Origin: Nitrosomonas europaea
GTDB taxonomy: Bacteria; Pseudomonadota; Gammaproteobacteria; Burkholderiales; Nitrosomonadaceae
DNA: 32,000 nucleotides
Assembly: GCF_900167395.1 (NCBI RefSeq)
Contig: NZ_FUWK01000021.1
Coordinates: forward strand, 1-32,000
Reading direction: 5' to 3'
Shown here: positions 4,410 to 30,419 of the stretch, in pieces
How positions within the stretch are numbered: the first letter of the stretch is position 1
Layout: every line of letters begins with the position of its first letter
Translations under genes and position numbers: made by a program
The notes under the pieces: generated by a model
The model's input: only the letters and a program-made list of their open reading frames with translations
Database searches by the model: none
What the model was told of the DNA's origin: nothing

Positions 4410-5378
4410 TCAACGAGCCTGCACCGTAATCCACCAGGAAGTGGTGCTGCTGATGCGTATCGGCAGAGTCGTTTCCAGCAGCGCCAGACTGGCGGGTATG
4501 TCAGTCACCGGGAAAGCACCGGAGATGGCCAGACTGGCAACAGAGGGATCGCAACGCAGAACACCACGGTGATAGCGGTTCAGTTCGGCGATCAGCTCAC
4601 CGAGATGCATGTCACGAGCCAGCAGCATGCCATGCTCCCACAGCGTGGTACTGGCTTCCACGGGTCGTACGGGCTGCATGTCGAGTCCGGTAAAGGTCAT
4701 CTGCTCACCTGCACGCAGAACAGTTGTTTGAATGGATACAGCCGGATGAACTTCGACAGCCCCCTCAAGCACAGCGACCTGAGTGCGGTCATCGAAATGG
4801 CGCACGGTGAAGCGCGTACCCAGTGCGCGCAAGCTGCCATGAGCGGTCTGCACGATGAAGGGGCGCGATACAGGAGACGGATCACGCCCGGTAGTCACAA
4901 GGATCTCTCCAGCCAGTAATATAAGACGCCGTTCAGCAGTGGTAAAAGCGACATTCGCTGCACTGGTAGTATTGAGCACCAGATGCGTGCCATCATTCAG
5001 ATCGATGAGTTTCTGTTCACCGGTGGCGGTACGCAGATCAGCCACCCATTCCTGCCAGGGGCTGTGTCGCCAGGTGATCCAGGCAGCAGGCATGGCAAGT
5101 GCAAGTAAGCCCAGGCGCAACATCTGCCGACGGCCAGGATTGCCCAGATGCGAAAAGGTATCATGACCCAGTTTTGGTGGTACCTGATCAAAAGTGCTCA
5201 GCATATTTTCAGCACGTCGCCAGGCGGCTTCATGAGCAGGGTTGCGTTCACGCCAATGTGCCAGAGCCATCCGATCGCGCTCCGTCGCTTCGCCGGACTG
5301 GAGCAGTACCAGCCAATCGGCTGCTTCCAGCAGGATAGCTGGATCGATATCGGGCTCGGGGGAATGGAGCACTGTCAT
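4410..5378 (-). CDS. fecR: FecR-type anti-sigma factor / transmembrane sensor (pair 1)
   Basis: 322-aa ORF. The N-terminus has the anti-sigma motif AADWLVLLQSGEATERDRMALAHWRERNPAHEAAW, followed by one TM-like segment and a FecR/DUF4880-DUF4974-like periplasmic part. It starts 7 nt after the fecI stop. Confidence 0.9.
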   Translation of the reverse strand: MTVLHSPEPDIDPAILLEAADWLVLLQSGEATERDRMALAHWRERNPAHEAAWRRAENMLSTFDQVPPKLGHDTFSHLGNPGRRQMLRLGLLALAMPAAWITWRHSPWQEWVADLRTATGEQKLIDLNDGTHLVLNTTSAANVAFTTAERRLILLAGEILVTTGRDPSPVSRPFIVQTAHGSLRALGTRFTVRHFDDRTQVAVLEGAVEVHPAVSIQTTVLRAGEQMTFTGLDMQPVRPVEASTTLWEHGMLLARDMHLGELIAELNRYHRGVLRCDPSVASLAISGAFPVTDIPASLALLETTLPIRISSTTSWWITVQAR

Positions 5379-5385
5379 GAATGAA

Positions 5386-5916
5386 TCAATCCAGCATCAG
5401 GCAAGCGACAAAGGCTGTGCGCATGTGTCGCTTGATCGTAATGAGTGAAAAACCGGTTTGATCAGCGATCTGCCGGTAAGTCAGCCCGTCGAGCTGGGCC
5501 AGCAGGAAAATATCCCGTGTACGTACCGGCAAACCGCGCAACATGGTTTCGATGCGGCACAGCGCTTCCAGGATCAGCAGTCGTGTTTCAGGCGAAGGGA
5601 TTTCTGTCTCTGGCAGGTGGGCAAGTGCTTCCAGGTAAGCACGCTCTACATCCTGTCGCCGCCAGTGGTCGATGACCAGACCCTTGGCAATGTGCGTCAG
5701 CAACGCACGCGGTTCCTCACCCAAATGTACCGGCATCCTTTGTGAAGCCATGACACGCAGAAAAGTATCGTGCGCCAGATCGGCTGCATCACAGGCATTG
5801 CCGAGTTTGCAGCGCAGCCAGCCATACAACCAGCCGTGATGGTCGGTATACAGAACATGGATTCGGTGTGCTGCAAGGTCAGTGGCCGGCACAGCGCCCT
5901 CTTCGTCATCGGTCAT
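5386..5916 (-). CDS. fecI: FecI-type ECF sigma factor (pair 1)
   Basis: The ORF contains LYTDHHGWLYGWLRCKLGNACDAADLAHDTFLRV (region 2) and LDGLTYRQIADQTGFSLITIKRHM (region 4 HTH). The track start 5934 is a TTG. I prefer ATG 5916 (MTDDEE...) because it parallels MTIP/MTIQ in the two paralogs and lies 25 nt from the Fur-like dyad. ATG 5922 is also possible. Confidence 0.85.
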   Translation of the reverse strand: MTDDEEGAVPATDLAAHRIHVLYTDHHGWLYGWLRCKLGNACDAADLAHDTFLRVMASQRMPVHLGEEPRALLTHIAKGLVIDHWRRQDVERAYLEALAHLPETEIPSPETRLLILEALCRIETMLRGLPVRTRDIFLLAQLDGLTYRQIADQTGFSLITIKRHMRTAFVACLMLD

Positions 5917-5940
5917 GCACATGTGCGAACACAAAAATAA

Positions 5941-5959: not shown

Positions 5960-6152
5960 TTATAAGGTAAGGTGCCCGACTTGCAAGACTGGTTTTATAT
6001 ATGACCAGACACCCAGTCAGGGCAGCAGACTCGCAAACTTTGCTGATCTGAGGGAACGAATACTGATAGCACAGACAATCGAGGAAATGTTTGATGCGTG
6101 AGTAGTTCGGGAAATGACAGGAGTTTCTGCCGGATTTTGCAGGAAGAAGTCC

Positions 6153-6192: not shown

Positions 6193-8655
6193 TTAAAACA
6201 TCGTACTGACAGAAAACGCAACAGTCCTCGGTACGCCTAAATAATTAGCATCTTGCCAGTAGTTTTTACCAGTCAGATTGATGACATTCAGACGTACTAT
6301 TAGTGACTTATCCAGTACACGAGTTGCATATCGTGCTCCGATATCATACAAGGTATAGCTGGGTATCTTGTCGGTATTGGCCGCATTGCCATATCTCTCG
6401 CTGGTATAGTAGATACCACCGGTCAAGCTCAATCCCGTAATCCAAGGCAGAGCATATTCCGCATAAATTTTGCCCATTCTGGAAGCAGCATTGACTGGTT
6501 TCTTTCCTTCCAGAGCAGGATCATTGGCTTTCTCTACGCTGATATCCATCAGGGTGCCGCCTCCCATGATAGTCAGATTGTCGGTTACTTTTCCGGTCAG
6601 GATCAATTCCACCCCGTTATGTACTTGCAAACCATCCTGAACGTAAGTGGGGATAGGCATAGCTTGATTTGAAAACTGATTGGCTTTCTCGATTCGGAAC
6701 AGCGCAGTACTCAATAATAAATTAGGATTGACATCGTATTTCAGACCCACTTCATATTGTTTACTGACGAGTGGTGGGAATACTTCCCCAAAATTAGTAT
6801 AGGTATTACCTACTCTCGTTCCTCTTTCAAGTGCTTCCATATAAGAGACATAGGTGGTGACATCTTTAATCGGTTTATACAGCACCGAGACGGAGGGGGT
6901 CAGCGCAGATTTTTCATATTTAATACCATCGCCATAAAAACCGGATGCTTTATTCATCGTAGTAGCATAGTTGAATCCGATCATCGCAGACCATTGATCA
7001 TTGAAAGTAATATCATCTCCAATCAAAACATTATTATATTGATCAATCCAGGGAGATGATACGGTTCCCTTTCCGAAAGATTCTCCCCAATCCGGCTCAG
7101 ATAAGTTTTTAACTTCATTTAACGAGAGGCTTGTACCAGACCGAAGAACAAAACCATTACCACGCAAAAAGTATTCATAATAAGTAGAGGAATAACCTAA
7201 GGTTAGTTTATGGTCGACAGCAAACGTTGAAAATCGCGTATCCAGGTAGATATAACCCCCATAATTTTCATGCTTTTCCCACGGGGCGTTTAACATTCTA
7301 GGAATAAAGGTCCTGTTCGCTTGCTCATTTAAATATATTTGGTTGGTTCTCATATTAGTATGTTGATAGAAGAAAGCACTTCTAAGGGTGAAATACTTAC
7401 TGGGATCCCAGCGCAGGCTGGTGTAAGCTTTGTGACTTTCCAAGTCATTAGATGCCCATTTGGGAGAATAGCGTTTACTGGTATCGACCCCAGTTCTTTC
7501 TATCACACTATTAAATGTTGGTTGTGTTGCTTCTTTGCTGTAGTCGTTATAGGTATATTTGACATCCGCGTAGAGGGTATCGGTAAGATGACCATCCAGC
7601 ACGATGTTGGCGACTTTCTGTTTTACGGGCTCACCTATAGCGGTATCTCCTCCTTGGTAGAGCAGATTGGCTCGATAACCGAAGCGGCCCCGATCATCGA
7701 ATTTTCCACTGATATCAGCATGGCCATAAAACTGAGTACCACCGTAGTTACCAAACGTCAGCCTTCTGAGCGGGACACTGGTTGGGCTTTTGGTCACGTA
7801 ATTTATTGCCCCGCCTACTCTGCCGCCACCATAGAGAAAGCCTGAGGTTCCACCGAGAATTTCGACTCGATCGATCTCGATGACGGATACGGCAGAGCCG
7901 TTCCCAAGAGCAAGAGGTATGCCATCATAGACCGGATTTGTTGATTGAAATCCGCGCATGACGACCATAGGTATACCGGTAAAATTCTGAATAGGTGGTT
8001 CCTGAGTCAAGGGATTCATTTTGAAGATCTGCCCCATATTCTGGGCATTGATGTTTTCAATCAAATCAGAAGGGACAATACTCATTGAATAGGGCGTATC
8101 TCGCAAGCTGCGTTCATCCCATAAGCCAATTCCGCTGACATTACTGACCAAATACCCCTCTTCTGCTGCGCCTTGTTTCAGGGAATCTGCTTTTACGGTC
8201 AGCGTGGGCAACACTGCTTTTCCATCAGTAGTCAGATTCCCGGTAGCCGGTACTTTATGCAAGGTATACCCTCCGCCCGGTTGCCTGATGACCTCTATAC
8301 TGTTACCGGCCAGCAGCAACATGAGTCCTGCTGAAATATCATGGCGGCCATTCAACCCTCTGGTCACTTTGTTGCTGATCAGTGCAGGATCATAGGTCAG
8401 ATTGACGCCTGCAGTACGGGCGAAGCGATCCAGTGCGCTATCCAGCGGGCCAGCAGGAATATCAAACATTCTGGTATTGGTTTCAACTGGCCCGGCTGCG
8501 TTGTTCTGTGCCTGTGCAGGCTGTATAAAACAGATCCCACTCAACACAAGAAAACCCGGTATCACGCTGCAGAGTACTGCAGTACGCAACAACCGGATCA
8601 AACTGGAGATGGAGATAAAACAATGAGTGACGATACAAGGATGAAAGATAGTCAT
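6193..8655 (-). CDS. TonB-dependent siderophore receptor/transducer with STN signalling domain (paralog 2)
   Basis: 820-aa ORF. It has a signal-like N-terminus ending QPAQA/QNN and the STN-like MFDIPAGPLDSALDRFARTAGVNLTYDP...GGYTLHK. A plug follows (RVEILGGTSGFLYGGGRVGGAINYVTK), then a long beta-barrel ending in the aromatic terminal F (VAFSVSTMF). Confidence 0.95.
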   Translation of the reverse strand: MTIFHPCIVTHCFISISSLIRLLRTAVLCSVIPGFLVLSGICFIQPAQAQNNAAGPVETNTRMFDIPAGPLDSALDRFARTAGVNLTYDPALISNKVTRGLNGRHDISAGLMLLLAGNSIEVIRQPGGGYTLHKVPATGNLTTDGKAVLPTLTVKADSLKQGAAEEGYLVSNVSGIGLWDERSLRDTPYSMSIVPSDLIENINAQNMGQIFKMNPLTQEPPIQNFTGIPMVVMRGFQSTNPVYDGIPLALGNGSAVSVIEIDRVEILGGTSGFLYGGGRVGGAINYVTKSPTSVPLRRLTFGNYGGTQFYGHADISGKFDDRGRFGYRANLLYQGGDTAIGEPVKQKVANIVLDGHLTDTLYADVKYTYNDYSKEATQPTFNSVIERTGVDTSKRYSPKWASNDLESHKAYTSLRWDPSKYFTLRSAFFYQHTNMRTNQIYLNEQANRTFIPRMLNAPWEKHENYGGYIYLDTRFSTFAVDHKLTLGYSSTYYEYFLRGNGFVLRSGTSLSLNEVKNLSEPDWGESFGKGTVSSPWIDQYNNVLIGDDITFNDQWSAMIGFNYATTMNKASGFYGDGIKYEKSALTPSVSVLYKPIKDVTTYVSYMEALERGTRVGNTYTNFGEVFPPLVSKQYEVGLKYDVNPNLLLSTALFRIEKANQFSNQAMPIPTYVQDGLQVHNGVELILTGKVTDNLTIMGGGTLMDISVEKANDPALEGKKPVNAASRMGKIYAEYALPWITGLSLTGGIYYTSERYGNAANTDKIPSYTLYDIGARYATRVLDKSLIVRLNVINLTGKNYWQDANYLGVPRTVAFSVSTMF

Positions 8656-8714
8656 ATTATTTTCGGTCAGATAGGTTAATGATCAACAAACAAGGCTCCC
8701 ACCTGATAGGTCGA

Positions 8715-8737
8715 TCGAGAATCGAAATCCCCTCACC
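8715..8737 (-). promoter_or_regulatory. Candidate ECF (FecI-type) promoter, GGTGA-N14-TCGA
   Basis: On the minus strand: GGTGA (8737..8733), a 14-nt T-rich spacer, TCGA (8718..8715), 60 nt before ATG 8655. The same GTGA-N14-TCGA arrangement lies 52-53 nt before two other STN-type receptor genes. Confidence 0.3.
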
Positions 8738-8802
8738 TTTTCCGAAAAATTTTTCTGACGCTTCTCCTGTTTTTATTCAACGAATAAATTTACGAACCAT
8801 TT

Positions 8803-8944
8803 AGGAACCTCTGCAAAACTATCTGCATTGCCATTTCTGCGTTAAAAGTCGGCTCAGAATACTCATTTATTACGTATAAACTCCGCTTCTTCGCCGACTT
8901 TTGCCTTGAACTGACTGCCTCGCTAACGTTTTTCAGAGGTTCCC
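8803..8944. mobile_element. About 140-bp MITE-like non-coding element, copy A
   Basis: Terminal inverted repeats: left end (T)TAGGAACCTCTGCAAAAC, right end GTTTTTCAGAGGTTCCCTTA. There is no ORF. It is about 85-90% identical by eye to 10356..10497, in the same orientation. Confidence 0.6.
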
Positions 8945-8951
8945 TTACTTA

Positions 8952-8999
8952 TCGCCAGGACAGCGATGCAGTTCGTACCTCACCGTATCCTGTTGCACT
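8952..8999. repeat. 48-bp hairpin-containing repeat, copy A
   Basis: tcgccaggacagcgatgcagttcgtacctcaccgtatcctgttgcact is near-identical to 10872..10919 (direct repeat, 1920 bp apart). The core also recurs inverted at 30393..30419. Confidence 0.65.
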
Positions 9000-9021
9000 A
9001 TAAAACGGAAAAAATCGTATG

Positions 9022-9293
9022 CTAAGGCTGCACTGAGGCAGGAATCCAGCGATAAAGCGTAGGAATGGACACGCCAAAGTTCTTGGCCACGTCCCTGGGC
9101 GGAACGCCGTTGGCCAGCAGCTTCATTGTCGACTCGATCTTACTGTCGGTCATCTTGGGTTTGCGGCCTCCCCTGCGACGTGCCACTCACCTTGTCCTCG
9201 AAGATCTTTTTACATCCGGCCCTGGTCAAGGCTTCGCGTTGCAGCTCCAGGTTCTGATCTTGCGTCGAGATTCACGTATAAGCCAATCAACAT
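9022..9293 (-). pseudogene. Decayed serine recombinase (resolvase/invertase): N-terminal stub fused to the C-terminal HTH
   Basis: The minus strand reads ATG TTG ATT GGC T-TAT ACG TGA ATC TCG ACG CAA GAT CAG, that is MLIG(Y)T*ISTQDQNLELQREALTRAGCKKIFEDKVSGTSQG. This carries the resolvase catalytic-Ser motif, with a 1-nt insertion and a TGA. The frame then switches to GGRKPKMTDSKIESTMKLLANGVPPRDVAKNFGVSIPTLYRWIPASVQP*, a Hin/resolvase-type HTH. The central catalytic domain is missing. Confidence 0.75.
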
Positions 9294-9664
9294 GGCTTGT
9301 CTCTTGCTTCATTGTCGGCGTCCTGGCGCACGGCGGGCAATTGCTTGAGCAACTCCGGCAGTGCTGCCTGCACGGTGTCCCACACCACATCGAGGTTGAT
9401 GTCGAAGTAGCCGTGGGCGATGCGGTTGCGCATGCCGCGCATATTGCGCCACGGCACTTGAGCATGTGCCTGGGCAAACTCGGCATAGCCATCCATCACC
9501 TTCGTGACGGCTTCGCCGATGATGATGAGGCTCATGATGACGGCCTGCTGAGTTTGCTTGTTCTCAAGGAAATCCTCTTTGGCCAGGCCCTCTACGAAGC
9601 TGCACGCGTCGGTTGCGGCCTGCTGTATGTGGTCGAGGTAATCGAGCAGGCGGCTTTCGCTCAT
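9287..9664 (-). CDS. hepT: HEPN-domain (DUF86) toxin HepT
   Basis: 125-aa ORF with the R-x4-H HEPN motif (MRNRIAHGYF). It overlaps the upstream nucleotidyltransferase gene by 4 nt. Confidence 0.9.
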   Translation of the reverse strand: MSESRLLDYLDHIQQAATDACSFVEGLAKEDFLENKQTQQAVIMSLIIIGEAVTKVMDGYAEFAQAHAQVPWRNMRGMRNRIAHGYFDINLDVVWDTVQAALPELLKQLPAVRQDADNEARDKPC

Positions 9665-9957
9665 ATCGGTCGCGCCTCCGCGAGTACCTTGGCCCGGAAC
9701 TTTGGCGGCAGGTCGCCGGGCGTCAGCAAATCAACGTGGAGGCCGAGCAGTGATTCCAGCTCGACTTGCAGACCACCCAGATCGAACAGTGTCGCACCAG
9801 GCAGCGCATCGACCAGCAGATCGAGGTCGCTGCCATCGTGGTCGGTGCCATGCAGCACCGAACCAAAGACACGCGGGTTCGTGGTGCGGAAGCGGCCTAC
9901 CGCTTCACGCACTGCGCTTCGTTTCATGTCAAGCACAACAGACGGTCTCATGGGCAT
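9661..9957 (-). CDS. mntA: Minimal nucleotidyltransferase antitoxin MntA
   Basis: 98-aa ORF with FGSVLHGTDHDGSDLDLLVD (the GS-x-D-x-D NTase motif). It pairs with the DUF86 gene. The region is visibly GC-rich compared with its surroundings. Confidence 0.9.
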   Translation of the reverse strand: MPMRPSVVLDMKRSAVREAVGRFRTTNPRVFGSVLHGTDHDGSDLDLLVDALPGATLFDLGGLQVELESLLGLHVDLLTPGDLPPKFRAKVLAEARPI

Positions 9958-10036
9958 CCTTTTTTATCAAAACTCGTTGAGATGGTATGCAATCAAGAAT
10001 AGAGCTTCAAGAACTATTTTCGAGAATCACAATACC

Positions 10037-10354
10037 TTAATATCCGTGAAATAAAAAATCGAGTGCACTGGTAATCTCGGGTTGCATATCTCGTAACGAC
10101 AGCACGGGCATTGTAAGTAGTCGCCGGGGGATAGCCCCCATTTTTGGAGTTTCCAGCAGAAAATCCTGGCCTTTGATCGTTACAACCGGAGTCAGCCTGC
10201 CGGGTAATTTAACTTTGGGGAAGTGCTCAAGGCTGCGCAATGGAATGACCATGCAGCTATCCAGCACATCAAGCAGATCGCTCTGGACATCCAGCAGATA
10301 AGGTGTCGTAGCGGCGTGACTACCCGGGTTAACATAAACATCGAAACGTGCCAC
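10037..10354 (-). CDS. ccdB: CcdB-family gyrase-poison toxin
   Basis: 105-aa ORF (M)ARFDVYVNPGSHAATTPYLLDVQSDLLDVLDSCMVIPL...ALDFLFHGY, colinear with CcdB. It has a GTG start at 10354, with GGAGG (plus-strand cctcc 10362..10366) 7 nt upstream. That GGAGG lies inside the MITE-like element. Confidence 0.85.
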   Translation of the reverse strand: MARFDVYVNPGSHAATTPYLLDVQSDLLDVLDSCMVIPLRSLEHFPKVKLPGRLTPVVTIKGQDFLLETPKMGAIPRRLLTMPVLSLRDMQPEITSALDFLFHGY

Positions 10355-10355
10355 A

Positions 10356-10497
10356 AGGGAGCCTCCAGAAAACTACCTGCGTTGTCATTTCTGCGTCAAA
10401 AATCGGCTCAAAATGCTCATTTATTACGTATAAACTCCGCTTTCTTGCCGATTTTTGCCTTGAACTGATTGCCTCGCTAATATTTTTTAGAGGTTCC
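10356..10497. mobile_element. About 140-bp MITE-like element, copy B, inserted between ccdA and ccdB
   Basis: Homologous along its full length to 8803..8944. It fills exactly the gap between the ccdA stop (10498..10500) and the ccdB start (10354). Confidence 0.65.
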
Positions 10498-10761
10498 TTA
10501 GAAACTTCTCCACTCGTCCAGTGGCAGATTCTCAGCTTCGATAGTGGCATTGTAGGCAGTAATAAAATCCGCATGTTCCTCACGCCAGCGGCGCTCTTGC
10601 TCATGACGCACCACTTCACGCAGGTAAGTATCGCAGACCTGAGAAATATTGATATCCAGTTGCCTGGCAGCGTCCAGTACATCAGCACTCAAGCTCAGAT
10701 TGATTGCACGTTTGCCAGGTCGGCCAGATTGGGTACGACGGACAGACTGTATCGTTGGCAT
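10498..10761 (-). CDS. ccdA: CcdA-family antitoxin
   Basis: MPTIQSVRRTQSGRPGKRAINLSLSADVLDAARQLDINISQVCDTYLREVVRHEQERRWREEHADFITAYNATIEAENLPLDEWRSF resembles CcdA (NIS...RRxxxxxW...). GGAGA lies 5 nt before ATG 10761. The longer track start (10779) lies within the operator-like palindrome. Confidence 0.8.
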   Translation of the reverse strand: MPTIQSVRRTQSGRPGKRAINLSLSADVLDAARQLDINISQVCDTYLREVVRHEQERRWREEHADFITAYNATIEAENLPLDEWRSF

Positions 10762-10771
10762 TGATGTCTCC

Positions 10772-10793
10772 ATGCGCATAATAATATGTGCAT
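10772..10793. promoter_or_regulatory. Candidate CcdA operator palindrome
   Basis: ATGCGCATAATAATATGTGCAT is a near-perfect 22-bp palindrome (2 mismatched pairs) directly upstream of the ccdA RBS. Confidence 0.4.
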
Positions 10794-10871
10794 AGCCTAA
10801 CCCGTATTATTCATTGTGTCCATGGTTTGCAACAAAACGATCAAGCCACTGGATTGCTTCAGCGTACCATT

Positions 10872-10919
10872 TCGCAAGGACAGCGATGCAGTTCGTACCT
10901 CACCGTATCCTAACGCACT
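10872..10919. repeat. 48-bp hairpin-containing repeat, copy B
   Basis: tcgcaaggacagcgatgcagttcgtacctcaccgtatcctaacgcact is a direct repeat of 8952..8999. It lies 11 nt downstream of the fecR (pair 2) stop. Confidence 0.65.
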
Positions 10920-10929
10920 CCTATCTCTG

Positions 10930-11973
10930 TTAACGATATAAGCTCTTCGGGCCCACTATCACCCAGAAACGTGTGCGATACATCACGCTGACCGGCTGCG
11001 TCTGTGCAAGAAATTGCAGTGCCTTATCCGTATCTTTCACATGAAAAATACCCGATATCGGCAGATCGGCCACACGTTCGTCACAAACGATGTAACCCGG
11101 ACGATAGCGTGACAGCTCAGCTACCAGATCGGCCAGCCGGATATTTTTACCGGCAATGACACCACTGACCCAGCCATCTTCCTCGAAATACCGGTCTGCT
11201 TCAGGCAGGATGCTGCTTCCGGTCAGTCGGCGGCTCTCACCCGCCTGCACGATGGCTGACGAACCACCGGCAGATGGATGCAACTCCACCGCGCCTTCCT
11301 GCACACTGACGCGGGCATGCTGTTCGTCCAGCCGTACGACAAAACGGGTACCGAGTGCCTGCAGTTCACCGAATGGCGTACGTACCCGGAACGGACGCTT
11401 CCTGCCGATTCGGGCCGATACTTCGCTATCGGGGCCGGTAGTGATATGCATCTCACCTCGCTGCAAGACGATGAGCCGCTGTGCTTCCGTCAGATCAAAG
11501 CTGACCGCACTGTCGGTATTGAGCACGACAACCGTACCATCGGTCAGATGGAGTACACGCTGTTCACCCGTGACGGTACTGGCATCCGCCAGCAGACGCT
11601 GCCAGGGAGTATGCTCACGCACAGTCCAGCCGGTTGCGATGGTAATACCCGCCAGAGACAGCAGTTTCATCGCATTTCTGCGGCTCAGTTTGCGTGACTG
11701 GCGTCTGCTGTCCACTTCCTGCAGTGTATCGAATGCCAGTCTGGAAGGAAGACTCCTGCAGTCATTCCTGAGATTATTCAGAGAATCTACCCGTTGCCAG
11801 GCAAGCCTATGCAACGGATCGGCGTGCAGCCACTGGTCGAAGGATTGACGGGTTTCAGGTGTGGGATCGTTATAATCGAGTCTGATCGACCAGGTGATGG
11901 CAGCCTCGATGATGTTTTCAGGAAGAGAGGCAGTTTGTGGCAGATTTTCCTGATCGACGGACGGGTGTGTCAT
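10930..11973 (-). CDS. fecR: FecR-type anti-sigma factor (pair 2)
   Basis: The N-terminus carries AITWSIRLDYNDPTPETRQSFDQWLHADPLHRLAWQR (anti-sigma domain), followed by one TM-like segment and a FecR periplasmic domain. I prefer ATG 11973 (MTHPSV...), 4 nt after the fecI stop, over the track start 12024, which overlaps fecI by 47 nt. Confidence 0.88.
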   Translation of the reverse strand: MTHPSVDQENLPQTASLPENIIEAAITWSIRLDYNDPTPETRQSFDQWLHADPLHRLAWQRVDSLNNLRNDCRSLPSRLAFDTLQEVDSRRQSRKLSRRNAMKLLSLAGITIATGWTVREHTPWQRLLADASTVTGEQRVLHLTDGTVVVLNTDSAVSFDLTEAQRLIVLQRGEMHITTGPDSEVSARIGRKRPFRVRTPFGELQALGTRFVVRLDEQHARVSVQEGAVELHPSAGGSSAIVQAGESRRLTGSSILPEADRYFEEDGWVSGVIAGKNIRLADLVAELSRYRPGYIVCDERVADLPISGIFHVKDTDKALQFLAQTQPVSVMYRTRFWVIVGPKSLYR

Positions 11974-11977
11974 CCGG

Positions 11978-12496
11978 TCATGCTTCGAAATGCAATGCGT
12001 AACACTGGCGCAGTGCCTTGGCAATATAGCGCTCGACAGTCGCCACGGATACGTCCAGATGTTTTGCGATCTGCGAACAGGTCAGCCCATCGATCTGTGC
12101 CAGTAGAAAGGCGGTGCGTACTGCCGGTTTGAGTGAATCGAGCACCCGGTCTATCTCGACCAGCGTTTCCAGAAAGATCAGGCGGCTTTCAGGGGCAGGC
12201 GTTTCGGGCTCAGGCAGAACTGCCAGTATCTCCAGCCAGACCTGCTCCAGCTCGCGCCGACGCCAGTGATCGACGACCAGGCCACGGGCGATGGAAGACA
12301 GATATGCCCGTGGTTCGTGTATCTGGGAGGGTTGCCGGCGAGTAAGTACCCGCATGAATACATCCTGGGCAATATCTGCTGCATCGAAAGTATTACCCAG
12401 CCTGCGATACAGCCATTTCTGCAACCAGCCATGATGATTATTGTACAGATCATGCGCTTGCTGCCACGTTACCAGCTTGACAACCGGGATGGTCAT
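11978..12496 (-). CDS. fecI: FecI-type ECF sigma factor (pair 2)
   Basis: 172 aa starting MTIPVVKL, with LYNNHHGWLQKWLYRRLGNTFDAADIAQDVFMRV (region 2) and IDGLTCSQIAKHLDVSVATVERYI (region 4). Confidence 0.92.
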   Translation of the reverse strand: MTIPVVKLVTWQQAHDLYNNHHGWLQKWLYRRLGNTFDAADIAQDVFMRVLTRRQPSQIHEPRAYLSSIARGLVVDHWRRRELEQVWLEILAVLPEPETPAPESRLIFLETLVEIDRVLDSLKPAVRTAFLLAQIDGLTCSQIAKHLDVSVATVERYIAKALRQCYALHFEA

Positions 12497-19714: not shown

Positions 19715-20728
19715 TCATGTATCCTCCTGCCGTGCTCCTACCCGAATCCAGTATCGGGTAAACAGCTGCACATCGATCGGCAGAGTCTTCTGCAATATGG
19801 CCAGTATCTTGCCGATATCTGCCAGTGGATAGGTCCCGGTTACTTTCAGCTGTGCAACAGCCGGGTCACAACTCAACCAGCCGGATCGATGGCGCCCCAG
19901 CTCAGCCAGAAAATCAATGAGCGGCATATCTCTCGCGACGATCATGCCCTGACGCCAGGCAGTATCAGCCTCACATGCCATTCCCACAGCGATCACGCCA
20001 TCACGTGTGAAAGCTGCCTGCTGGCCGACTTCCAACTGTCGCAAACGACCGGTGATCGGTTGAATCTCGACTGCACCTTCGAATACTGCCACGCTACTTT
20101 TGCCTTGTTGTGACACATCGAACTGGCGCACGGTAAAACGTGTCCCGATCGCACGCAATATTCCCTGTGCAGTCTCAATCAGCAGAGGACGTGCAGCCCC
20201 GATTCCATTCGCCAGCCGGGGGTCAGGCGCAGTGGTCACCATGATCTCCCCATTCATCAAACGGATCAGACGCCGTGTATCGTCAAAATTGACCGTAATG
20301 GCGCTACCGGAATTGAGTTCTATACCTGTTCCATCGGAAAGCGTAACAGCCCGGTGCTCACCGATACCGGTACAGTAATCTTCCGGCCACCAGCACCAGA
20401 GCCGCCCTTCTCCGGCCACCCATGTTCCACCACCCAGGAAAATCAATACAGTCAGCGCCTTGATTGCTCTGCGCCGGCTCGAAGAATGAGGAGGAGTCAG
20501 AGCAGCATGTGCCAGTGGAGAAGGAAGTCCCCGCAATTTTCTGGAAAAAACCTCTACCTGCTGCCAGGCGTATTCATGATCAGGATGAGACATGCGCCAT
20601 TTCTGCCACTGATCACGTGTTTCATCCGTCACGATATCAGACTGTAATTCCACCAGCCAGTTGACCGCCTGACGCCGCACATCTGGTGGTACGACCGAAT
20701 CTCTGGCTATTTCTTCGGTATCAGGCAT
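19715..20728 (-). CDS. fecR: FecR-type anti-sigma factor (pair 3)
   Basis: 337 aa with RRQAVNWLVELQSDIVTDETRDQWQKWRMSHPDHEYAWQQ (anti-sigma domain), a TM-like segment (ALTVLIFLGGGTWVAG) and a FecR periplasmic domain. Confidence 0.9.
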   Translation of the reverse strand: MPDTEEIARDSVVPPDVRRQAVNWLVELQSDIVTDETRDQWQKWRMSHPDHEYAWQQVEVFSRKLRGLPSPLAHAALTPPHSSSRRRAIKALTVLIFLGGGTWVAGEGRLWCWWPEDYCTGIGEHRAVTLSDGTGIELNSGSAITVNFDDTRRLIRLMNGEIMVTTAPDPRLANGIGAARPLLIETAQGILRAIGTRFTVRQFDVSQQGKSSVAVFEGAVEIQPITGRLRQLEVGQQAAFTRDGVIAVGMACEADTAWRQGMIVARDMPLIDFLAELGRHRSGWLSCDPAVAQLKVTGTYPLADIGKILAILQKTLPIDVQLFTRYWIRVGARQEDT

Positions 20729-20786
20729 CAGATATCAAACAACAATTTTGCTATAGGGTACTGATCCACCCGTAAACACTTCCTGA

Positions 20787-21299
20787 TCATCCGATAAAGC
20801 AGCATTGTTCCAGCGCTTTTGCTACATAACGCTTGACAGTGGGAACAGAAATACCGCAACGCTGAGCGATCTCGCTCTGACGCAGGCCATCGATCTGTGA
20901 CAACAGAAAAACCTTGCGTACCAGAGGCGGCATACCATCCAGCAGCGCATCGATTTCCACCAGTGTTTCCAGCATGATGGCCTGAGCCTCGGGTGACGGC
21001 GCCAATGACTCCGGTATCTGTGCCAGTGCATCGAGATATGCCTGTTCGATGCGCTGATGACGATGGAAATTGGCTACGATACCCTGTGCGATCGTAGTGA
21101 GCAGCGCACGTGGCTCATGAATGACAGGGAGTGAATCCTTGCTCAGAATCCGCAAAAAAATATCATGCGCCAGATCCGGAGCCTGCAGAGCATTGCTCAG
21201 CCTGCGACGCAACCACCCCACCAGCCATTTGTGATGATGGCAATAGAGCGACTCGATACTGCAGGAAGCAAGGGAATTTTCCGGATTCTGGATCGTCAC
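20787..21299 (-). CDS. fecI: FecI-type ECF sigma factor (pair 3)
   Basis: LYCHHHKWLVGWLRRRLSNALQAPDLAHDIFLRI (region 2) and IDGLRQSEIAQRCGISVPTVKRYV (region 4). The track start 21344 is a TTG that abuts the Fur-like dyad. GTG 21299 gives (M)TIQNPENS..., the same length and N-terminus style as pair 2 (MTIPVV). The start is uncertain. Confidence 0.85.
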   Translation of the reverse strand: MTIQNPENSLASCSIESLYCHHHKWLVGWLRRRLSNALQAPDLAHDIFLRILSKDSLPVIHEPRALLTTIAQGIVANFHRHQRIEQAYLDALAQIPESLAPSPEAQAIMLETLVEIDALLDGMPPLVRKVFLLSQIDGLRQSEIAQRCGISVPTVKRYVAKALEQCCFIG

Positions 21300-21345
21300 G
21301 ATGGGGTTCGAACAATAAAGCTTAAGCCTGATTTGAGATAACAAT

Positions 21346-21582: not shown

Positions 21583-24084
21583 TCAGAATCTTATATTGAG
21601 TGCAACACGAACATTACGCGGTGCGCCGTAGTAACTCGCCGGTACCGTTTGGTAATACTTCTCATCGAAGAGATTGTAGAGATTGGCGGATAAAGCGACC
21701 ATTTTGGTAATCTCGAGGCGCGCCATCAGATCAACCACCGCATAACCGCCCTGGGAAATCTCGACTCTGGCAGGACCCTGGTCATTACGATAGATGCGAT
21801 TCTGCCAGCGTACGCCACCACCGATCGTCAAACCTTCTGCAACAGTCGGAAAACGGTAAGTGGAAAACAGTTTGAACGTATTCCGGGGAACCTGGGTATT
21901 CAGCTTCACTTTATCCCGGTCTTCCGTTACGTTATGAGCAAACCCGACTGATGCCTGCCAGTTCCGGGTCAGCATACCGGCCAGTTCCATCTCGAAACCA
22001 TCGGTTCTGGCCCCGGATACTGACCGGTAAGCGGTTGAACCATCCGGTGCCAGTACATTATTCGGCAGTGCAACGGCGAGGTTATCCTGCTGAATTCTGT
22101 AGACTGCACCATGCAGATTCAAACGATTATCAAAGAATGCCGCCTTGATACCTGCCTCATAACTGTTGCCCAGCAATGGATCGATAAATGCACCATTTTC
22201 GCTGCGTACCGTCTGTGGCTTGAAAATACTGGTATAGCTGGCATAAACCGTCCAGTTATCGAGAAAATCGTAGGTAATCCCTGCAAATGGAATAATTTCC
22301 GGATCCTGATTGGAATTGATCCGTGTTATGTTGCCAGTCTGATAGTTTTCGGAAAAACGCTTGAACTTCCAGTGCGTTACTCTGGCTCCCCCAATCAGGG
22401 ACAATGAATCGAGTAATCTGAATCGGCCTGTCGCATAGCCGCTGATAACCTGCTCATCCTGACCCCACTCACCGATAGGCGTATCGTTGGTGGGTGGCAT
22501 AGTGGGTGTATTGCCATCCCAGGTGAAAATATTACCGATCGAGTTGCTCCAGTTGTCGAAAAACCATAGCCGGTAAGTAGGTGTGTGATCTTTCGTGAAC
22601 GAGAACAGGGTCCCGGCAATCAGATCATGCTTGCGTCCGAACAGAGAAAATGAACCCATGGTGTAAACATCGAGTGTATTTTGTGTAGGCGCGCCTTTCC
22701 AGCGACCGGCCCAGAGGTTGACTCCCGCACCGGTTGCTTTATCAGGATAACCACCCAGCGCATAACCCAGTACTTCATCGTATTTAGTGACTGTACGATT
22801 CCACGATATTCTCGCCAGCCAGTCCTCGTTGAAGCGGTGATCCAGTGTCACGAATACCATCTCACCATTCCTTTTGGAATAAGCCCAGTTTGCGGCCGCG
22901 GTATCGGATCGTCCCCAGGTAGTGCGTGTCCCGTCAGAGTAGAAAGCCGGTAAAGCGCCTCTTGCATTTGCGGTTTGATCCTGCTCCTGGAACATGAAAC
23001 CGGCCGTTGCCAGTGTGGAAGGTGTCAGATCTGCCTCGACAATCCCATAAAGCAGCGATCTTTTCTGTTCCTCACGATCGATATAGGAATCGCTGGTATT
23101 CAGCACACCCACCAGCCTGCCGCGCACTTTTCCCGATGGAATCAGTGGCATGGAAATATCCCCTTCGGCTCGGCGATATCCCCAGTTTCCTCCTTCGAAT
23201 CTCGTCGCGGCCCGGAATGTATCTGTCGGACGCTTGCGTATCAGATTGATACTGGCACCGGGTGTGCCGACACTATTCATCAAGCCATTAGCGCCCCGCA
23301 CGATCTCGACACGATCGAAGATCGCCATATCATTGGTCTGAAAAATACGGTTGTAGTTATTGTAAATCTGCGGCACGCCATCGATCTGATAGTTATCGAC
23401 AGCAAACCCGCGCGCATAAAAAGTGGCGGAATCGGACTGACTGCTCCCGCCTGACTGGAATACCATCCCGGTGGTCTGATTCACGACATCAGAAAGTTGT
23501 GTCAATCCTTGATCTTCCATACGCTGGCGTGTCATGACACTGACAGACTGGGGTGTTTCGCGCAGAGTCAATGGCAAACGGGTAGAAGTATTGGTCGAAC
23601 CGGTCGTATAAGAGCCAGTGTCCTCAGTCGTCGGATCAACTATCCCGGATGTCATGACAGTCATTGCCGGCAATGTCAACGCCCCCTCTGAAGGTTGAGA
23701 AACAGTGGCAGACGATCCTCTCAGGGTATAGCTGCCGTCAGCCGTTCTTACTGCTTCCAGCCCGCTACCAGCCAGTAAAGCAGATAATCCGTCGTGAGCC
23801 GTATAGTTACCATTCAATCCTGCGCTTTGCAGACTGTTGGTCAGCTCTGTCGAGAATGACAGCAAAATGCCTGCTTCCCGACCGAAATCATTGAGTACAG
23901 TAGTCAGTGAACCGGCTGGAATGTGGTAATGCCTGACAACCCCGGATTGCTGCGCACTGACTGGCGATATCATGGTCAGGTACGATACAGCCAGCATCAC
24001 GATCAGGAACAGGCGCGCGATCGCCCTGCCGTTCCACAAACGTTGAAATGATGGTAATAAAAAATAATGTTTGATGATGATCAT
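21583..24084 (-). CDS. TonB-dependent siderophore receptor/transducer with STN domain
   Basis: 833 aa with a signal-like N-terminus (...ISPVSA/QQ) and the STN-like HYHIPAGSLTTVLNDFGREAGILLSFSTELT...DGSYTLR. The plug motifs are ETPQSVSVMTRQRMEDQ and FDRVEIVRGANGLM. The barrel ends in RF. Confidence 0.95.
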   Translation of the reverse strand: MIIIKHYFLLPSFQRLWNGRAIARLFLIVMLAVSYLTMISPVSAQQSGVVRHYHIPAGSLTTVLNDFGREAGILLSFSTELTNSLQSAGLNGNYTAHDGLSALLAGSGLEAVRTADGSYTLRGSSATVSQPSEGALTLPAMTVMTSGIVDPTTEDTGSYTTGSTNTSTRLPLTLRETPQSVSVMTRQRMEDQGLTQLSDVVNQTTGMVFQSGGSSQSDSATFYARGFAVDNYQIDGVPQIYNNYNRIFQTNDMAIFDRVEIVRGANGLMNSVGTPGASINLIRKRPTDTFRAATRFEGGNWGYRRAEGDISMPLIPSGKVRGRLVGVLNTSDSYIDREEQKRSLLYGIVEADLTPSTLATAGFMFQEQDQTANARGALPAFYSDGTRTTWGRSDTAAANWAYSKRNGEMVFVTLDHRFNEDWLARISWNRTVTKYDEVLGYALGGYPDKATGAGVNLWAGRWKGAPTQNTLDVYTMGSFSLFGRKHDLIAGTLFSFTKDHTPTYRLWFFDNWSNSIGNIFTWDGNTPTMPPTNDTPIGEWGQDEQVISGYATGRFRLLDSLSLIGGARVTHWKFKRFSENYQTGNITRINSNQDPEIIPFAGITYDFLDNWTVYASYTSIFKPQTVRSENGAFIDPLLGNSYEAGIKAAFFDNRLNLHGAVYRIQQDNLAVALPNNVLAPDGSTAYRSVSGARTDGFEMELAGMLTRNWQASVGFAHNVTEDRDKVKLNTQVPRNTFKLFSTYRFPTVAEGLTIGGGVRWQNRIYRNDQGPARVEISQGGYAVVDLMARLEITKMVALSANLYNLFDEKYYQTVPASYYGAPRNVRVALNIRF

Positions 24085-29756: not shown

Positions 29757-30212
29757 TCATGCACGCTTGGCTCCCGCTGCCTTGTGGCGAACAATGCGGG
29801 CATCCATTCGGGCCATGACTTCATCGTGCGGGATGCCTGGCCGGGGGTCGTCGATGGCTTCCTGAATCTCAGCAGCAAGCCACTCGTTATAGGCGGCCGC
29901 TTCATGAGCCTTGTGTAGTGCTTTGGCACGATTATCACTGGAACGTGCTACTGGCTCACGTTCGTCCGGGTTCCATTCGCTGGCATCAAACTGACCGATA
30001 GTAATACCCACCTCACGCAGCACATTTAAGGCAGCAGCCGGGTTGCCGAAGCGACGCGGTTCACTGTTGCGAGCCTTCGTCAGAATAGCTGCGACACCGC
30101 TGCGCGTGTTGATCTGAACAAGGAATGCACCGCCTTGCCCTTTCAGAGTTACACTCGAAACGCCACCGGTTTCACTGGCCGTCCGAAGCTGTTCAAGAGT
30201 CATGCTTCGCAT
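29757..30212 (-). CDS. Putative antitoxin in the ParD position, two-domain (unknown N-terminal domain plus a ParD/stability-determinant-like C-terminus)
   Basis: It lies directly upstream (25 nt) of parE. AAGGAGA sits 4 nt before ATG 30212 (MRSMTLEQL...). The C-terminal AAYNEWLAAEIQEAIDDPRPGIPHDEVMARMDARI resembles short antitoxin modules. I do not recognise the N-terminal about 90 aa. Confidence 0.55.
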   Translation of the reverse strand: MRSMTLEQLRTASETGGVSSVTLKGQGGAFLVQINTRSGVAAILTKARNSEPRRFGNPAAALNVLREVGITIGQFDASEWNPDEREPVARSSDNRAKALHKAHEAAAYNEWLAAEIQEAIDDPRPGIPHDEVMARMDARIVRHKAAGAKRA

Positions 30213-30329
30213 ATTTCTCTCCTTACCGTAGCGCAATACCTACGTAAATTGGTGCATTACTTATTAAAAATGTGCAAACCCTGATGGGGAACGATGAGTG
30301 GAATTCGAGATTTAGAGTTGCTGAGGAAC

Positions 30330-30387: not shown

Positions 30388-30392
30388 ATAGC

Positions 30393-30419
30393 AGGATGCG
30401 GTGAGGTACGAACCGCATC
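30393..30419. repeat. Hairpin repeat core, copy C (inverted relative to copies A and B)
   Basis: aGGATGCGGT-gaggtacga-ACCGCATC has a perfect 8-bp stem. Its reverse complement matches the core gatgcagttcgtacctcaccgtatcct of 8952..8999 and 10872..10919. Confidence 0.6.

Follow-up and report, generated by a model that had tools for sequence, protein, structure and literature searches.

For type II toxin-antitoxin operons, the balance between antitoxin and toxin is believed to need close regulation. In the ccd operon of the F plasmid, deep mutational scanning revealed that synonymous changes or small gains in the strength of the ccdB ribosome-binding site (RBS) are harmful (PMC9555053). Here, we analyze a ccdAB pair of Nitrosomonas europaea, located in a stretch of 32,000 nucleotides (the window), in which a copy of a palindromic element lies between antitoxin gene and toxin gene. 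The question posed by this locus is whether a transposon hairpin can stand in for a stop/start overlap.

Results

Gene pair and spacer

The genes and the codon that ends ccdA are the following:

10498..10761, reverse strand: ccdA, antitoxin gene, 87 aa (Pfam CcdA and identity to the deposited protein)
10500..10498, reverse strand: stop codon TAA of ccdA (sequence reading)
10037..10354, reverse strand: ccdB, toxin gene, 105 aa, GTG start (Pfam CcdB, full length)

By its domains and gene order, the pair is classified as a CcdA/CcdB type II toxin-antitoxin module, a class in which CcdB poisons gyrase and CcdA neutralises it. The product of ccdA, which lies directly upstream of ccdB on the same strand, has a CcdA domain (PF07362, E = 1.6e-26), and a CcdB domain (PF01845, E = 7.5e-34) spans residues 3-104 of the 105 residues of the toxin. 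The 87-aa CcdA is identical to N. europaea CAD84988.1 and CcdB is identical to CAD84987.1; the nearest solved structure to the latter is that of Vibrio fischeri CcdB (PDB 2kmt, E = 3.3e-18, full length). An earlier, sequence-only reading of the locus had extended it to position 10779. Indeed, the longest ccdA ORF reaches ATG 10779, but the true start is most likely ATG 10761, which yields the 87 aa of the deposited protein. The ccdA stop at 10500..10498, the ccdB GTG at 10354 and the gap of 143 nt held when the sequence was read again, and with this gap (10355-10497) the two genes neither overlap nor abut. Stop/start abutment or overlap is typical for the ccdAB family, without being strictly defining.

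Insertion of a MITE into the stop/start overlap

Two copies of the element and the duplicated target of one of them were located in the window:

10358..10497, no strand assigned: MITE copy B, 140 nt, in the ccdA-ccdB spacer (repeat pair with copy A; missing from orthologous loci)
8804..8943, no strand assigned: MITE copy A, 140 nt, in the orientation of copy B (repeat search and blastn)
10498..10501, no strand assigned: target-site duplication on the ccdA side, TTAG on the forward strand and CTAA on the gene strand; supplies the ccdA stop
10354..10357, no strand assigned: target-site duplication on the ccdB side, CAAG on the forward strand and CTTG on the gene strand (empty/filled comparison)

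Repeat search and blastn aligned the two copies without gaps at 86% identity over 140 nt (E = 2e-44) and detected no third copy in the 32-kb window, which settles the concern that the copies might fail to align on computation. The sequence-only reading had put copy A at 8803..8944 and had taken the entire gap as the other copy. The former is confirmed with boundaries refined to 8804-8943; as to the latter, copy B accounts for 140 nt and is flanked by 4-nt target duplications. The ccdA stop does not sit at the element's own boundary, as had been proposed, since the stop codon belongs to one of these duplications. Copy A has terminal inverted repeats of 16 nt (94% complementary), is located between a resolvase remnant and the gene of a TonB-dependent receptor and is flanked by TTTA and CTTA. 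The copies differ from the subfamily consensus at 8 (copy A) and 14 (copy B) of 140 positions. No ORF with a family match is found inside the 140 nt; the element is short and non-coding.

The window holds only two copies, which point the same way at a distance of 1.55 kb. This arrangement would also fit a spacer that is ancestral to the ccdAB lineage and a local duplication of it at 8804-8943. To compare orthologous and paralogous ccdAB loci, we used the sites L012/L013, L014-L017 and L018-L020. In L012-L020, which do not have the element, stop and start codons overlap by one base, as TTCTAGTGG or TTCTGATGG, and there is no spacer, in agreement with the assumption that genes of this type normally abut or overlap. 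L012/L013 encode a CcdB that is 92% identical to that of the window and have the collinear gene order fecI-fecR-ccdA-ccdB, with 86-91% DNA identity over this locus for L012. The ancestral target is CTAG, which arises where the stop of ccdA and the start of ccdB overlap (TTC-TAG-TGG). Filled and empty sites differ by 144 nt, i.e., the 140 nt of the element and the 4-bp duplication, and removal of 10358-10501 from the filled site would give TTCTAGTG. The two flanks at the ccdAB site are each one substitution away from CTAG; in allele L143, the copy on the ccdA side still reads TAG (282A>G), and that duplication is intact. On the ccdB side, the duplication ends on the initial G of the ccdB GTG. 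Since the target includes the ccdA stop and borders directly on the ccdB start, the duplication remade the ccdA stop and kept the ccdB GTG, and hence both reading frames were left untouched.

This comparison of filled and empty sites shows, at the level of sequence, the insertion of a 140-bp non-coding palindromic MITE into CTAG between ccdA and ccdB. The ancestral spacer of about 140 nt without repeats elsewhere, which had been named as a possible refutation of an insertion, is itself refuted by ccdAB relatives that have no spacer and an intact CTAG target; it is also contradicted by the presence of the element at dozens of unrelated loci with their own 4-bp target duplications. The insertion is young, and its age has only loose bounds, with MITE-bearing alleles differing by ≤1.2%. 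Dating by divergence from the family consensus was rejected, since other copies have most of the 14 differences too, and these probably predate the insertion; no weight is placed on a Poisson test that assumed a post-insertion divergence of 3.5-10% and proved unreliable.

A MITE family with YTAR targets

As judged from terminal inverted repeats, 4-bp direct target duplications, many dispersed copies and empty sites, the element is a MITE. The Nitrosomonas subfamily was found in 41 metagenome stretches, corresponding to about 25-36 distinct loci. Identical 4-nt direct flanks are present in 13 of 25 distinct copies, with CTAA and TTAG seen five times each. Under a direct model, 18-21 of 25 flanks match per position, compared to 7 of 25 at the outer positions under an inverted model, and on these statistics a TA-only duplication (IS630/Tc1-like) was dropped in favor of a 4-bp duplication.

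Insertion sequences of the IS5 group produce a 4-bp YTAR target duplication. The element resembles them in its targets CTAG, CTAA and TTAG and in the direct duplication of 4 bp, and its termini begin with GGAA. Unlike them, it does not encode a transposase, and the DNA examined contained no full-length IS with GGAACCTCTG termini. The IS5-like signature of the target duplications is therefore taken as a lead, the parentage not being demonstrated. All GGAACCTCTG/CAGAGGTTCC terminus pairs 180-2500 bp apart within the DNA examined turned out to be neighboring MITEs or a 271-nt non-coding element, and no transposase is encoded between any GGAACCTCTG...CAGAGGTTCC pair. The 271-nt element has the same termini; strain H1_AOB3 carries it at the stop codon of ccdB (TTAA). 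An IS630-family element near the locus in this strain (L140) was considered as the parent and discarded because its ends are unrelated.

At least 119 stretches of reference genomes contain the core of the element. A wider family with this conserved core is spread over Pseudomonas, Halomonas, Gallionella and other genera, and in it the 70-nt core is better conserved than the termini; the plasmid collection gave a single match, in Halomonas, which was useful as a first hint of the wide spread. The sequences reveal a large MITE superfamily common to Beta- and Gammaproteobacteria that is apparently undescribed. Rfam 15 (cmscan, E ≤ 1, positions 8000-12000) has no family for the element and gave two chance matches to unrelated families. 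In a literature search by sequence strings and keywords, with the N. europaea genome paper outside its scope, we found neither a description of the element nor a MITE of N. europaea, and the same kind of search gave no report of a MITE within a toxin-antitoxin operon.

Replacement of the ccdB Shine-Dalgarno sequence and predicted RNA structure

Three short motifs on the gene strand are relevant for initiation at ccdB:

10362..10366, reverse strand: Shine-Dalgarno (SD) sequence GGAGG of ccdB in the 3' terminus of the element, 7 nt before the GTG (sequence reading)
10508..10511, reverse strand: ancestral ccdB SD sequence GGAG in Trp-Arg codons of ccdA (empty-site comparison)
10489..10493, reverse strand: CCUCU in the 5' arm of the hairpin, predicted partner of the ccdB SD sequence (MFE and centroid structures)

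At the empty sites L012/L013, GGAG lies 9 nt ahead of the overlapping GTG. In the window, this motif, part of the final ccdA codons, has been shifted 144 nt further off and is now >150 nt away from the ccdB GTG, and the only SD sequence near the ccdB start is the element-borne GGAGG. The earlier observations that the only good RBS of ccdB is inside the element terminus and that the terminus of copy A has GAGG are thus both borne out, copy A reading AGAGG at the equivalent place. The subfamily consensus at this position is also AGAGG. The A-to-G change to GGAGG is found at this locus alone among 31 copies and is invariant in 9 of 9 MITE-bearing alleles compared. Among 36 loci there was no convincing repeat case of SD donation, and the few ORFs that start past the element look spurious.

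The RNA of copy B is predicted to fold into a hairpin of -43.9 kcal/mol (z = -5.0), that of copy A into one of -54.2 kcal/mol (z = -7.1). In naked mRNA, the ccdB SD sequence has a predicted probability of being unpaired of 0.00; its partner CCUCU is positioned 5-9 nt downstream of the ccdA stop. The modelled cost of opening the RBS decreases from 17.4 to 11.7 kcal/mol when a ribosome holds the first 13 or more nt past the stop. About 11.7 kcal/mol of local RBS structure is left with a ribosome on the stop codon because an alternative small hairpin forms. The ancestral junction in naked mRNA is modelled as equally closed (17.5 kcal/mol). The sequence-only reading had described the coupling of the two genes as broken. 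This applies to the physical overlap, which is lost, but as the new SD sequence is predicted to pair just past the ccdA stop, translation of ccdA could still gate ccdB, and a hairpin-mediated coupling of the two genes is plausible from the modelled structures.

One pair of the stem has changed on both sides from G-C to A-U (element positions 10 and 131), and an allele-specific A>G restores another pair; two further substitutions in the basal stem give weaker pairing on the mRNA strand. An alignment of 87 copies revealed no wobble asymmetry that would indicate selection on RNA of one strand (G·U versus A·C, 53 versus 44). The palindrome is a property at the DNA level, with no evidence of selection at the RNA level in this alignment.

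Retention of both genes

In all nine distinct full-length MITE-bearing alleles compared, the ccdA and ccdB ORFs are intact, with no stop or frameshift. The element has 7 variable sites among its 143, compared to 4 among 318 for ccdB (Fisher p = 0.04) and 6 among 264 for ccdA, which corresponds to a per-site variation of the element 3-4 times that of ccdB. Compared to the MITE-less orthologue L012, dN/dS is 0.11 for ccdB and 0.15 for ccdA, values that include pre-insertion time. On the window branch, the polarised changes in ccdB are one nonsynonymous and four synonymous; among the polymorphisms, which include the nonsynonymous changes H13Y and P18S in ccdB and two amino-acid changes in ccdA, nonsynonymous and synonymous ones stand at about 1:1, and p values lie close to 0.05. 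Post-insertion purifying selection is weakly evidenced because the alleles are so similar. The MITE-less loci L014-L017 have a ccdA nonsense mutation and a ccdB frameshift, i.e., chromosomal ccdAB does decay in this clade. A locus on its way to decay had been suggested as one outcome of the insertion. This is not supported, since both genes are intact in every element-bearing allele; furthermore, the element varies more than the genes, and the decayed relative L014 is MITE-less.

Discussion

In our model, ccdB would stay co-transcribed with ccdA across the element, and the element-borne SD sequence would drive its translation. In the mRNA, the element would form a long hairpin whose basal helix pairs the SD sequence with CCUCU. 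A ribosome that ends translation of ccdA would cover and melt the CCUCU strand, and the SD sequence would be freed. Toxin synthesis would then be conditional on antitoxin translation, probably at a toxin:antitoxin ratio lower than that of the ancestral overlap, and the pair would still function as a poison-antidote module instead of decaying. To the whole of this account, from the MITE in CTAG and the replaced SD sequence to the hairpin-conditional toxin and the module that still works, we assign a probability of roughly 0.55; co-transcription, use of GGAGG and unmasking by the ribosome are all modelled. It may be imagined that the inverted repeats of the MITE were even co-opted as a one-step safety catch of the toxin, with the SD sequence locked and CcdB produced only after CcdA is completed, and that GGAGG and the adjacent compensatory change from G-C to A-U are adaptive tuning after the insertion; we put this forward tentatively and consider it doubtful.

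What the element does to toxin output may also be read differently. It might mainly cut toxin output and be tolerated for the resulting shift of the ratio toward the antitoxin, with the core (A5-stem ... stem-U5) acting as a partial intrinsic terminator, or with the imperfect duplex of about 60 bp being cut by RNase III or RNase E, which would separate the ccdA and ccdB messages. The core hairpin is indeed located between an A-run and a U-run (GGCAAAAAUCGGC...GCCGAUUUUUGACG), RNase III cuts Correia elements and ERIC exposes RNase E sites in co-transcribed genes (PMC10969869), and Pseudomonas stem-loop repeats are depleted between tail-to-head genes, which was read as terminator-like behavior (PMC2718517). 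Furthermore, the ccd operon of the F plasmid is highly sensitive to raised ccdB translation (PMC9555053), and for this reason only an insertion that lowers the toxin should survive. However, a consensus scan for intrinsic terminators found none in 10355-10497 on either strand. The core is a stem followed by U5, but the hairpin is long and interrupted, the G+C-rich part of the stem that adjoins the U-run has just 5 bp, and A-run and U-run pair with each other. Another copy of this element, in the spacer of an ABC-transporter operon (L154), argues against strong termination, and the upgrade of the SD sequence to GGAGG suggests pressure for ccdB translation rather than silencing. Attenuation as the main effect is therefore unlikely; it is compatible with the model preferred here, and both may act together.

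If the insertion had simply uncoupled ccdB, the locus would be an antitoxin-only remnant whose toxin is silent and whose toxin ORF is not yet degraded. A young insertion makes intact ORFs weak evidence, the SD sequence is wholly sequestered in the predicted structure, and the amino-acid changes in both proteins as well as the decay at L014-L017 would fit. Against this stand the nine alleles free of stops and frameshifts, the low per-site variation of ccdB relative to the element, the excess of synonymous changes on the window branch and the fixation of an SD-strengthening change unique to copy B; the decaying relative is without the element, so that decay is not tied to it. We regard a silent toxin as quite improbable. 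Transcription of ccdB alone, from an outward promoter in the element, would be another way to uncouple it, and TTGACG (10399-10394) and TAGTTT (10375-10370) on the gene strand, spaced by 18 nt, match the sigma-70 consensus at 8 of 12 positions. This candidate is under the threshold of the sigma-70 scan and went unreported by it, the G of TTGACG is a recent polymorphism (the other MITE-bearing alleles and the family consensus have TTAACG), and a start about 7 nt past the -10 box would fall in GGAGG and give an mRNA without SD sequence. Since an antitoxin-independent toxin transcript should also be strongly counter-selected, there is hardly any likelihood left for such a promoter.

A MITE within an operon is a known phenomenon, and the locus is a natural variant of it. 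[quoted passage not shown] 2008 (Genetics 179:2291), likewise has terminal inverted repeats and target duplications, forms a stable hairpin and lies inside an operon whose structure it leaves undestroyed. As far as that summary goes, Chunjie has no sequence relationship to our element, its host belongs to another phylum and its operon serves phosphate uptake, whereas copy B struck the one-base stop/start overlap of a toxin-antitoxin pair, remade both codons and replaced the downstream SD sequence. The hairpins of ERIC/IRU (Yersinia; RNase E) and of Correia elements (CREE/NEMIS in Neisseria; RNase III) alter the expression of flanking genes (PMC10969869). Like these elements of about 100-170 bp, which are found between co-transcribed genes, ours is a palindromic MITE, and its flanking genes are putatively co-transcribed; unlike them, it has no Rfam or sequence match, and the proposed effect is on downstream translation initiation. 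Correia elements duplicate TA, whereas the family described here duplicates 4 bp, YTAR.

The order of antitoxin and toxin and the full length of CcdB are as in canonical ccdAB of the F plasmid and the V. fischeri chromosome. In the F-plasmid operon, the RBS of ccdB is located within ccdA (PMC9555053). The MITE-less relatives are similar in having the SD sequence inside ccdA, and they also have the stop/start overlap; the window genes deviate from the canonical arrangement in their distance of 143 nt and in an SD sequence taken from a mobile element. In the coat-replicase pair of RNA phage MS2, long-range pairing shuts the downstream RBS, and ribosomes on the upstream gene open the pairing segment. 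At the ccdAB locus, too, the downstream RBS is predicted to be closed by an upstream segment; in contrast to MS2, the putative partner is just past the upstream stop and would have been made in one step by the inverted repeats of a transposon.

YTAR targeting draws the elements to TAG and TAA stops, which they remake, and this gives them entry to operon junctions with unbroken frames. At ccdAB, the toxin gene was moved 144 nt off and its RBS was swapped, yet both genes are intact across the N. europaea lineage, which makes the locus a natural experiment on the degree of rewiring that a poison-antidote pair can bear. The MITE-less orthologues represent the exact state before the insertion and therefore provide a ready-made pair of constructs for testing how much coupling such a pair needs. 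If the safety-catch reading is true, the locus would document how a MITE set a structure-based coupling in place of an overlap-based coupling in a toxin-antitoxin operon.

The toxin-antitoxin junction and its empty site

On re-reading the sequence, the coordinates of an earlier sequence-only reading proved correct: ccdA and ccdB lie on the minus strand, separated by a gap of 143 nt that is filled by a 140-nt element with a second copy downstream.

10498-10761, minus strand: ccdA, 87 aa, full-length match to Pfam CcdA (1.6e-26), stop codon TAA at 10500..10498; the longest open reading frame begins at 10779
10358-10497: copy B of the 140-nt element
10037-10354, minus strand: ccdB, 105 aa, GTG start, full-length match to Pfam CcdB (7.5e-34)
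8804-8943: copy A of the element

The deposited CcdA (CAD84988.1) and CcdB (CAD84987.1) of Nitrosomonas europaea ATCC 19718 have exactly the same sequences as the two proteins here; proteins encoded nearby are N. europaea as well, which places the window in the chromosome of that species. The nearest solved structure to CcdB is 2kmt, the chromosomal CcdB from Vibrio fischeri (3.3e-18 over the full length). Copy B is 86% identical to copy A, ungapped and in the same orientation, and no third copy of the 140-nt element was found elsewhere in the window. The terminal inverted repeats of copy A are 16 nt long (GGAACCTCTGCAAAAC / GTTTTTCAGAGGTTCC), and both copies are predicted to form long hairpins, with stabilities well beyond those of shuffled sequences (−43.9 kcal/mol, z −5.0, for copy B; −54.2 kcal/mol, z −7.1, for copy A).

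The sequence-only reading had taken copy B for an insertion between the two genes and proposed a comparison with element-less orthologues. We compared the junction with contigs encoding close CcdB homologues, and this view is borne out. In L012 and L013, whose CcdB is 92% identical and in which fecI, fecR, ccdA, and ccdB are collinear with the window at 86-91% DNA identity, the junction reads ...AAATTTCTAGTGGCC..., where TAG, ending ccdA, and GTG, opening ccdB, have one base in common. The junction is the same in L014-L017 (TTCTAGTGG; 86%) and reads TTCTGATGG in L018-L020 (79%); none of these contigs has a spacer between stop and start, and the window exceeds them by exactly 144 bases. On the plus strand, the empty site CCA-CTAG-AA corresponds to CCA-CAAG-(140 nt)-TTAG-AA in the window. 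Both CTAG copies beside the element now differ by one substitution each; in another allele (L143), the ccdA stop is still TAG and the ccdA-side copy is intact. [quoted passage not shown] Both reading frames survived because of the 4-bp duplication: one copy provides the ccdA stop, and the other ends with the G that begins the ccdB GTG.

Target duplication and mobility of the element ends

A metagenome scan with a subfamily-specific motif gave 41 stretches, corresponding to about 25-36 distinct loci, with the Nitrosomonas subfamily consensus GGAACCTCTGAAAAAC...GTTTTTCAGAGGTTCC. Copies deviate from this consensus at 1-24 positions (8 in copy A, 14 in copy B). Identical direct 4-nt flanks are present in 13 of the 25 copies with recognisable ends (CTAA and TTAG five times each), and at all four positions the direct flanks match in 18-21 of the 25. 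The rival model, duplication of TA combined with a longer inverted repeat, accounts for the outer positions of just 7 of the 25 copies and was rejected; the comparison of these counts argues that the element duplicates a 4-bp YTAR target, which we take to be the signature of IS5-group insertion sequences.

No transposase-bearing parent with the ends of the element was found in the DNA examined. An IS630-family element adjoining the locus in Nitrosomonas sp. H1_AOB3 (L140, 11010-11890; HTH_Tnp_IS630 and DDE_3 gene calls, TA flanks) was considered as parent and rejected, its ends being unrelated; it breaks an ECF sigma-factor gene whose counterpart in the window (5386-5934) is intact. The same genome (CP054389.1) carries a 271-nt noncoding element at 6319-6589 of L140 with the termini of the MITE (GGAACCTCTGCA...TGCAGAGGTTCC) and an unrelated interior. 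Its insertion point is the ccdB stop codon (TTAA); it is missing from the window and indicates that these ends have been mobilised more than once in the ccdAB neighbourhood. This second stop-codon hit in the same operon implies recent activity of a transposase recognising them. In a metagenome contig (L154), a complete copy of 140 nt (6895-7034; CTAA/CTAA duplication) fills a spacer of an ABC-transporter operon, the next one after a permease gene whose final three codons (Arg-Asn-Leu) and TGA stop come from a 30-nt derivative made of the two termini only (5995-6024).

Scanning one genome per species with a central 27-nt motif yielded at least 119 stretches (L021-L139). Among the matches listed, this superfamily spans many Gamma- and Betaproteobacteria (among others, Pseudomonas, Stutzerimonas, Halomonas/Vreelandella, Marinomonas, Cellvibrionaceae, Gallionella, Vogesella, Chitinimonas, and Nitrosomonas), and all members are palindromic and about 140-150 nt long. 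Conservation is high over about 70 central nucleotides, including the asymmetry of the centre itself, and the outer 10-25 nt vary by subfamily. By sequence comparison, the core (GCGTTAAAAAC..GCTCATTTAC.AC...GTAAACTCCGCTT..) is much more conserved than the termini, the opposite of what would be expected of a MITE. Several copies lie at contig ends of a Nitrosomonadales metagenome-assembled genome, as expected for a high-copy repeat. Rfam holds no family matching the element, and no description of it was found in the searchable literature. Across an alignment of 87 copies, wobble pairs did not favour either strand (53 versus 44); the palindrome is a property of the transposon DNA and does not count as evidence for a conserved RNA.

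Origin of the toxin Shine-Dalgarno sequence

At the empty sites, the ccdB Shine-Dalgarno sequence is a GGAG 9 nt upstream of the GTG, within ccdA's Trp-Arg codons; in the F plasmid, the ccdB ribosome-binding site likewise lies within ccdA (PMC9555053). In the window, over 150 nt separate this ancestral GGAG (10508-10511) from the ccdB start, and a GGAGG in the element terminus (10362-10366) precedes the GTG by 7 nt, the equivalent position in copy A reading AGAGG. The proposal that the element supplies the Shine-Dalgarno sequence of the toxin therefore holds at the sequence level. Since the termini are inverted repeats that finish ...CAGAGGTTCC in both orientations, any start codon just past the 4-bp duplication receives AGAGG at a near-ideal distance. 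Copy B differs from the consensus by three adjacent changes on the gene strand, TCAGAGG to CTGGAGG, which create GGAGG. This version is unique to copy B among 31 subfamily copies and invariant across nine distinct full-length MITE-bearing alleles. For one of the three changes, the facing arm carries a partner change (G-C to A-U); in the mRNA, the change creating the Shine-Dalgarno sequence replaces a U-A pair by U-G.

Proposed translation of ccdB from the predicted mRNA

In the predicted mRNA, the ccdB Shine-Dalgarno sequence is fully paired (probability unpaired 0.00) with CCUCU at 10489-10493, 5-9 nt past the ccdA stop. The modelled ensemble cost of opening the ribosome-binding site is 17.4 kcal/mol in naked RNA and 11.7 kcal/mol if 13-19 nt, counted from where the stop codon begins, are held single-stranded, as by a terminating ribosome. 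For the ancestral overlapping junction (L012), the cost in naked RNA is 17.5 kcal/mol, and on this model it too needs ccdA-translating ribosomes for opening. On our preferred reading, the insertion may have swapped overlap-based for structure-based coupling, probably with a lower toxin output. Such hairpin-mediated coupling is plausible in the model, and we regard it as tentative, somewhat short of an even chance.

Other effects of the element could replace or accompany it. The core hairpin and its U-run may act as a partial terminator, or the element RNA may be processed by RNase III or RNase E, by analogy with Correia and ERIC elements, for which such processing is demonstrated (PMC10969869). 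A separate ccdB transcript from the weak promoter-like TTGACG-N18-TAGTTT of the window allele is unlikely to matter: the motif scores under the promoter-scan threshold, the G of TTGACG is a recent polymorphism, and the predicted transcript start would fall within the Shine-Dalgarno sequence.

Probable retention of the gene pair

The alternative that the locus is heading for decay was not borne out. The element is at the same position in every examined contig that encodes the window CcdB or another protein of its 90% cluster (N. europaea-type, H1_AOB3, and several metagenome-assembled genomes), and the nine alleles (≤1.2% divergent) contain no stops or frameshifts in ccdA or ccdB. Variable sites number 7/143 in the element, 6/264 in ccdA, and 4/318 in ccdB (2 nonsynonymous, 2 synonymous; element versus ccdB, Fisher p = 0.04). 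Outgroup-polarised changes on the window branch of ccdB are 1 nonsynonymous and 4 synonymous, and in comparison with L012, ccdB has a dN/dS of 0.11 and ccdA one of 0.15, over a span that covers pre-insertion time as well. These statistics are weak because the insertion is young. Decay is seen in the MITE-less L014-L017 (ccdAB at 2133-2714 in L014), where CAA to TAA in ccdA truncates CcdA at 54 aa, a 1-nt insertion frameshifts the first ccdB codons, and ccdAB adjoins a secretin gene, a context different from the window. Hence, the clade does contain decaying loci, but decay does not go with the element, and the data make it fairly likely that the MITE-bearing lineage keeps a functional pair.

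Neighbourhood of the locus

The pair belongs to a 1.9-kb island (ccdAB, mntA/hepT, and a resolvase remnant) between fecR and a TonB-dependent receptor gene.

10930-12024: fecR
8952-8999 and 10872-10919: 48-nt direct repeat, 92% identical, flanking the island
9661-9957, minus strand: MntA-like nucleotidyltransferase, directly downstream of ccdB
9287-9664, minus strand: HepT, second member of this toxin-antitoxin pair
9022-9186, minus strand: 54-aa resolvase HTH_7 remnant, after mntA/hepT
6193-8655: TonB-dependent receptor
30392-30419, minus strand: partial third copy (28-nt core) of the 48-nt repeat, near another receptor cluster

The 48-nt repeat could be an ECF-sigma promoter or the recombination site of the island. 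At the position of the resolvase remnant, L006 has a gene call with a Resolvase-domain match. Sigma/anti-sigma pairs of the fecI/fecR type (4410-5934, 10930-12496, and 19715-21344) form a dense array with TonB-dependent receptors (6193-8655, 21583-24084, 24287-26740, 26864-29059, and 30638-31798); the last has the C-terminal receptor barrel only and may be a receptor fragment. Toxin-antitoxin genes are wedged into this array, such as a PaaA2-domain ORF (29757-30236), and in contig L001, the stretch from a fecR to the receptor that follows it holds ParE/HTH, PIN/Phd, and FitA/PIN pairs.

A MITE within a toxin-antitoxin operon

Stem-loop repeats are generally depleted between tail-to-head genes (PMC2718517). 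Like copy B in ccdAB, the MITEs Chunjie (Geobacter), ERIC (Yersinia), and Correia (Neisseria) are documented within operons (PMC10969869); our literature search found no report of a MITE inside a type II toxin-antitoxin operon. What is new here is that the insertion hit a toxin-antitoxin pair exactly at its stop/start overlap, with both codons regenerated by the duplication and a transposon terminus replacing the Shine-Dalgarno sequence of the toxin. The locus is easy to test, since its "before" state exists in nature.
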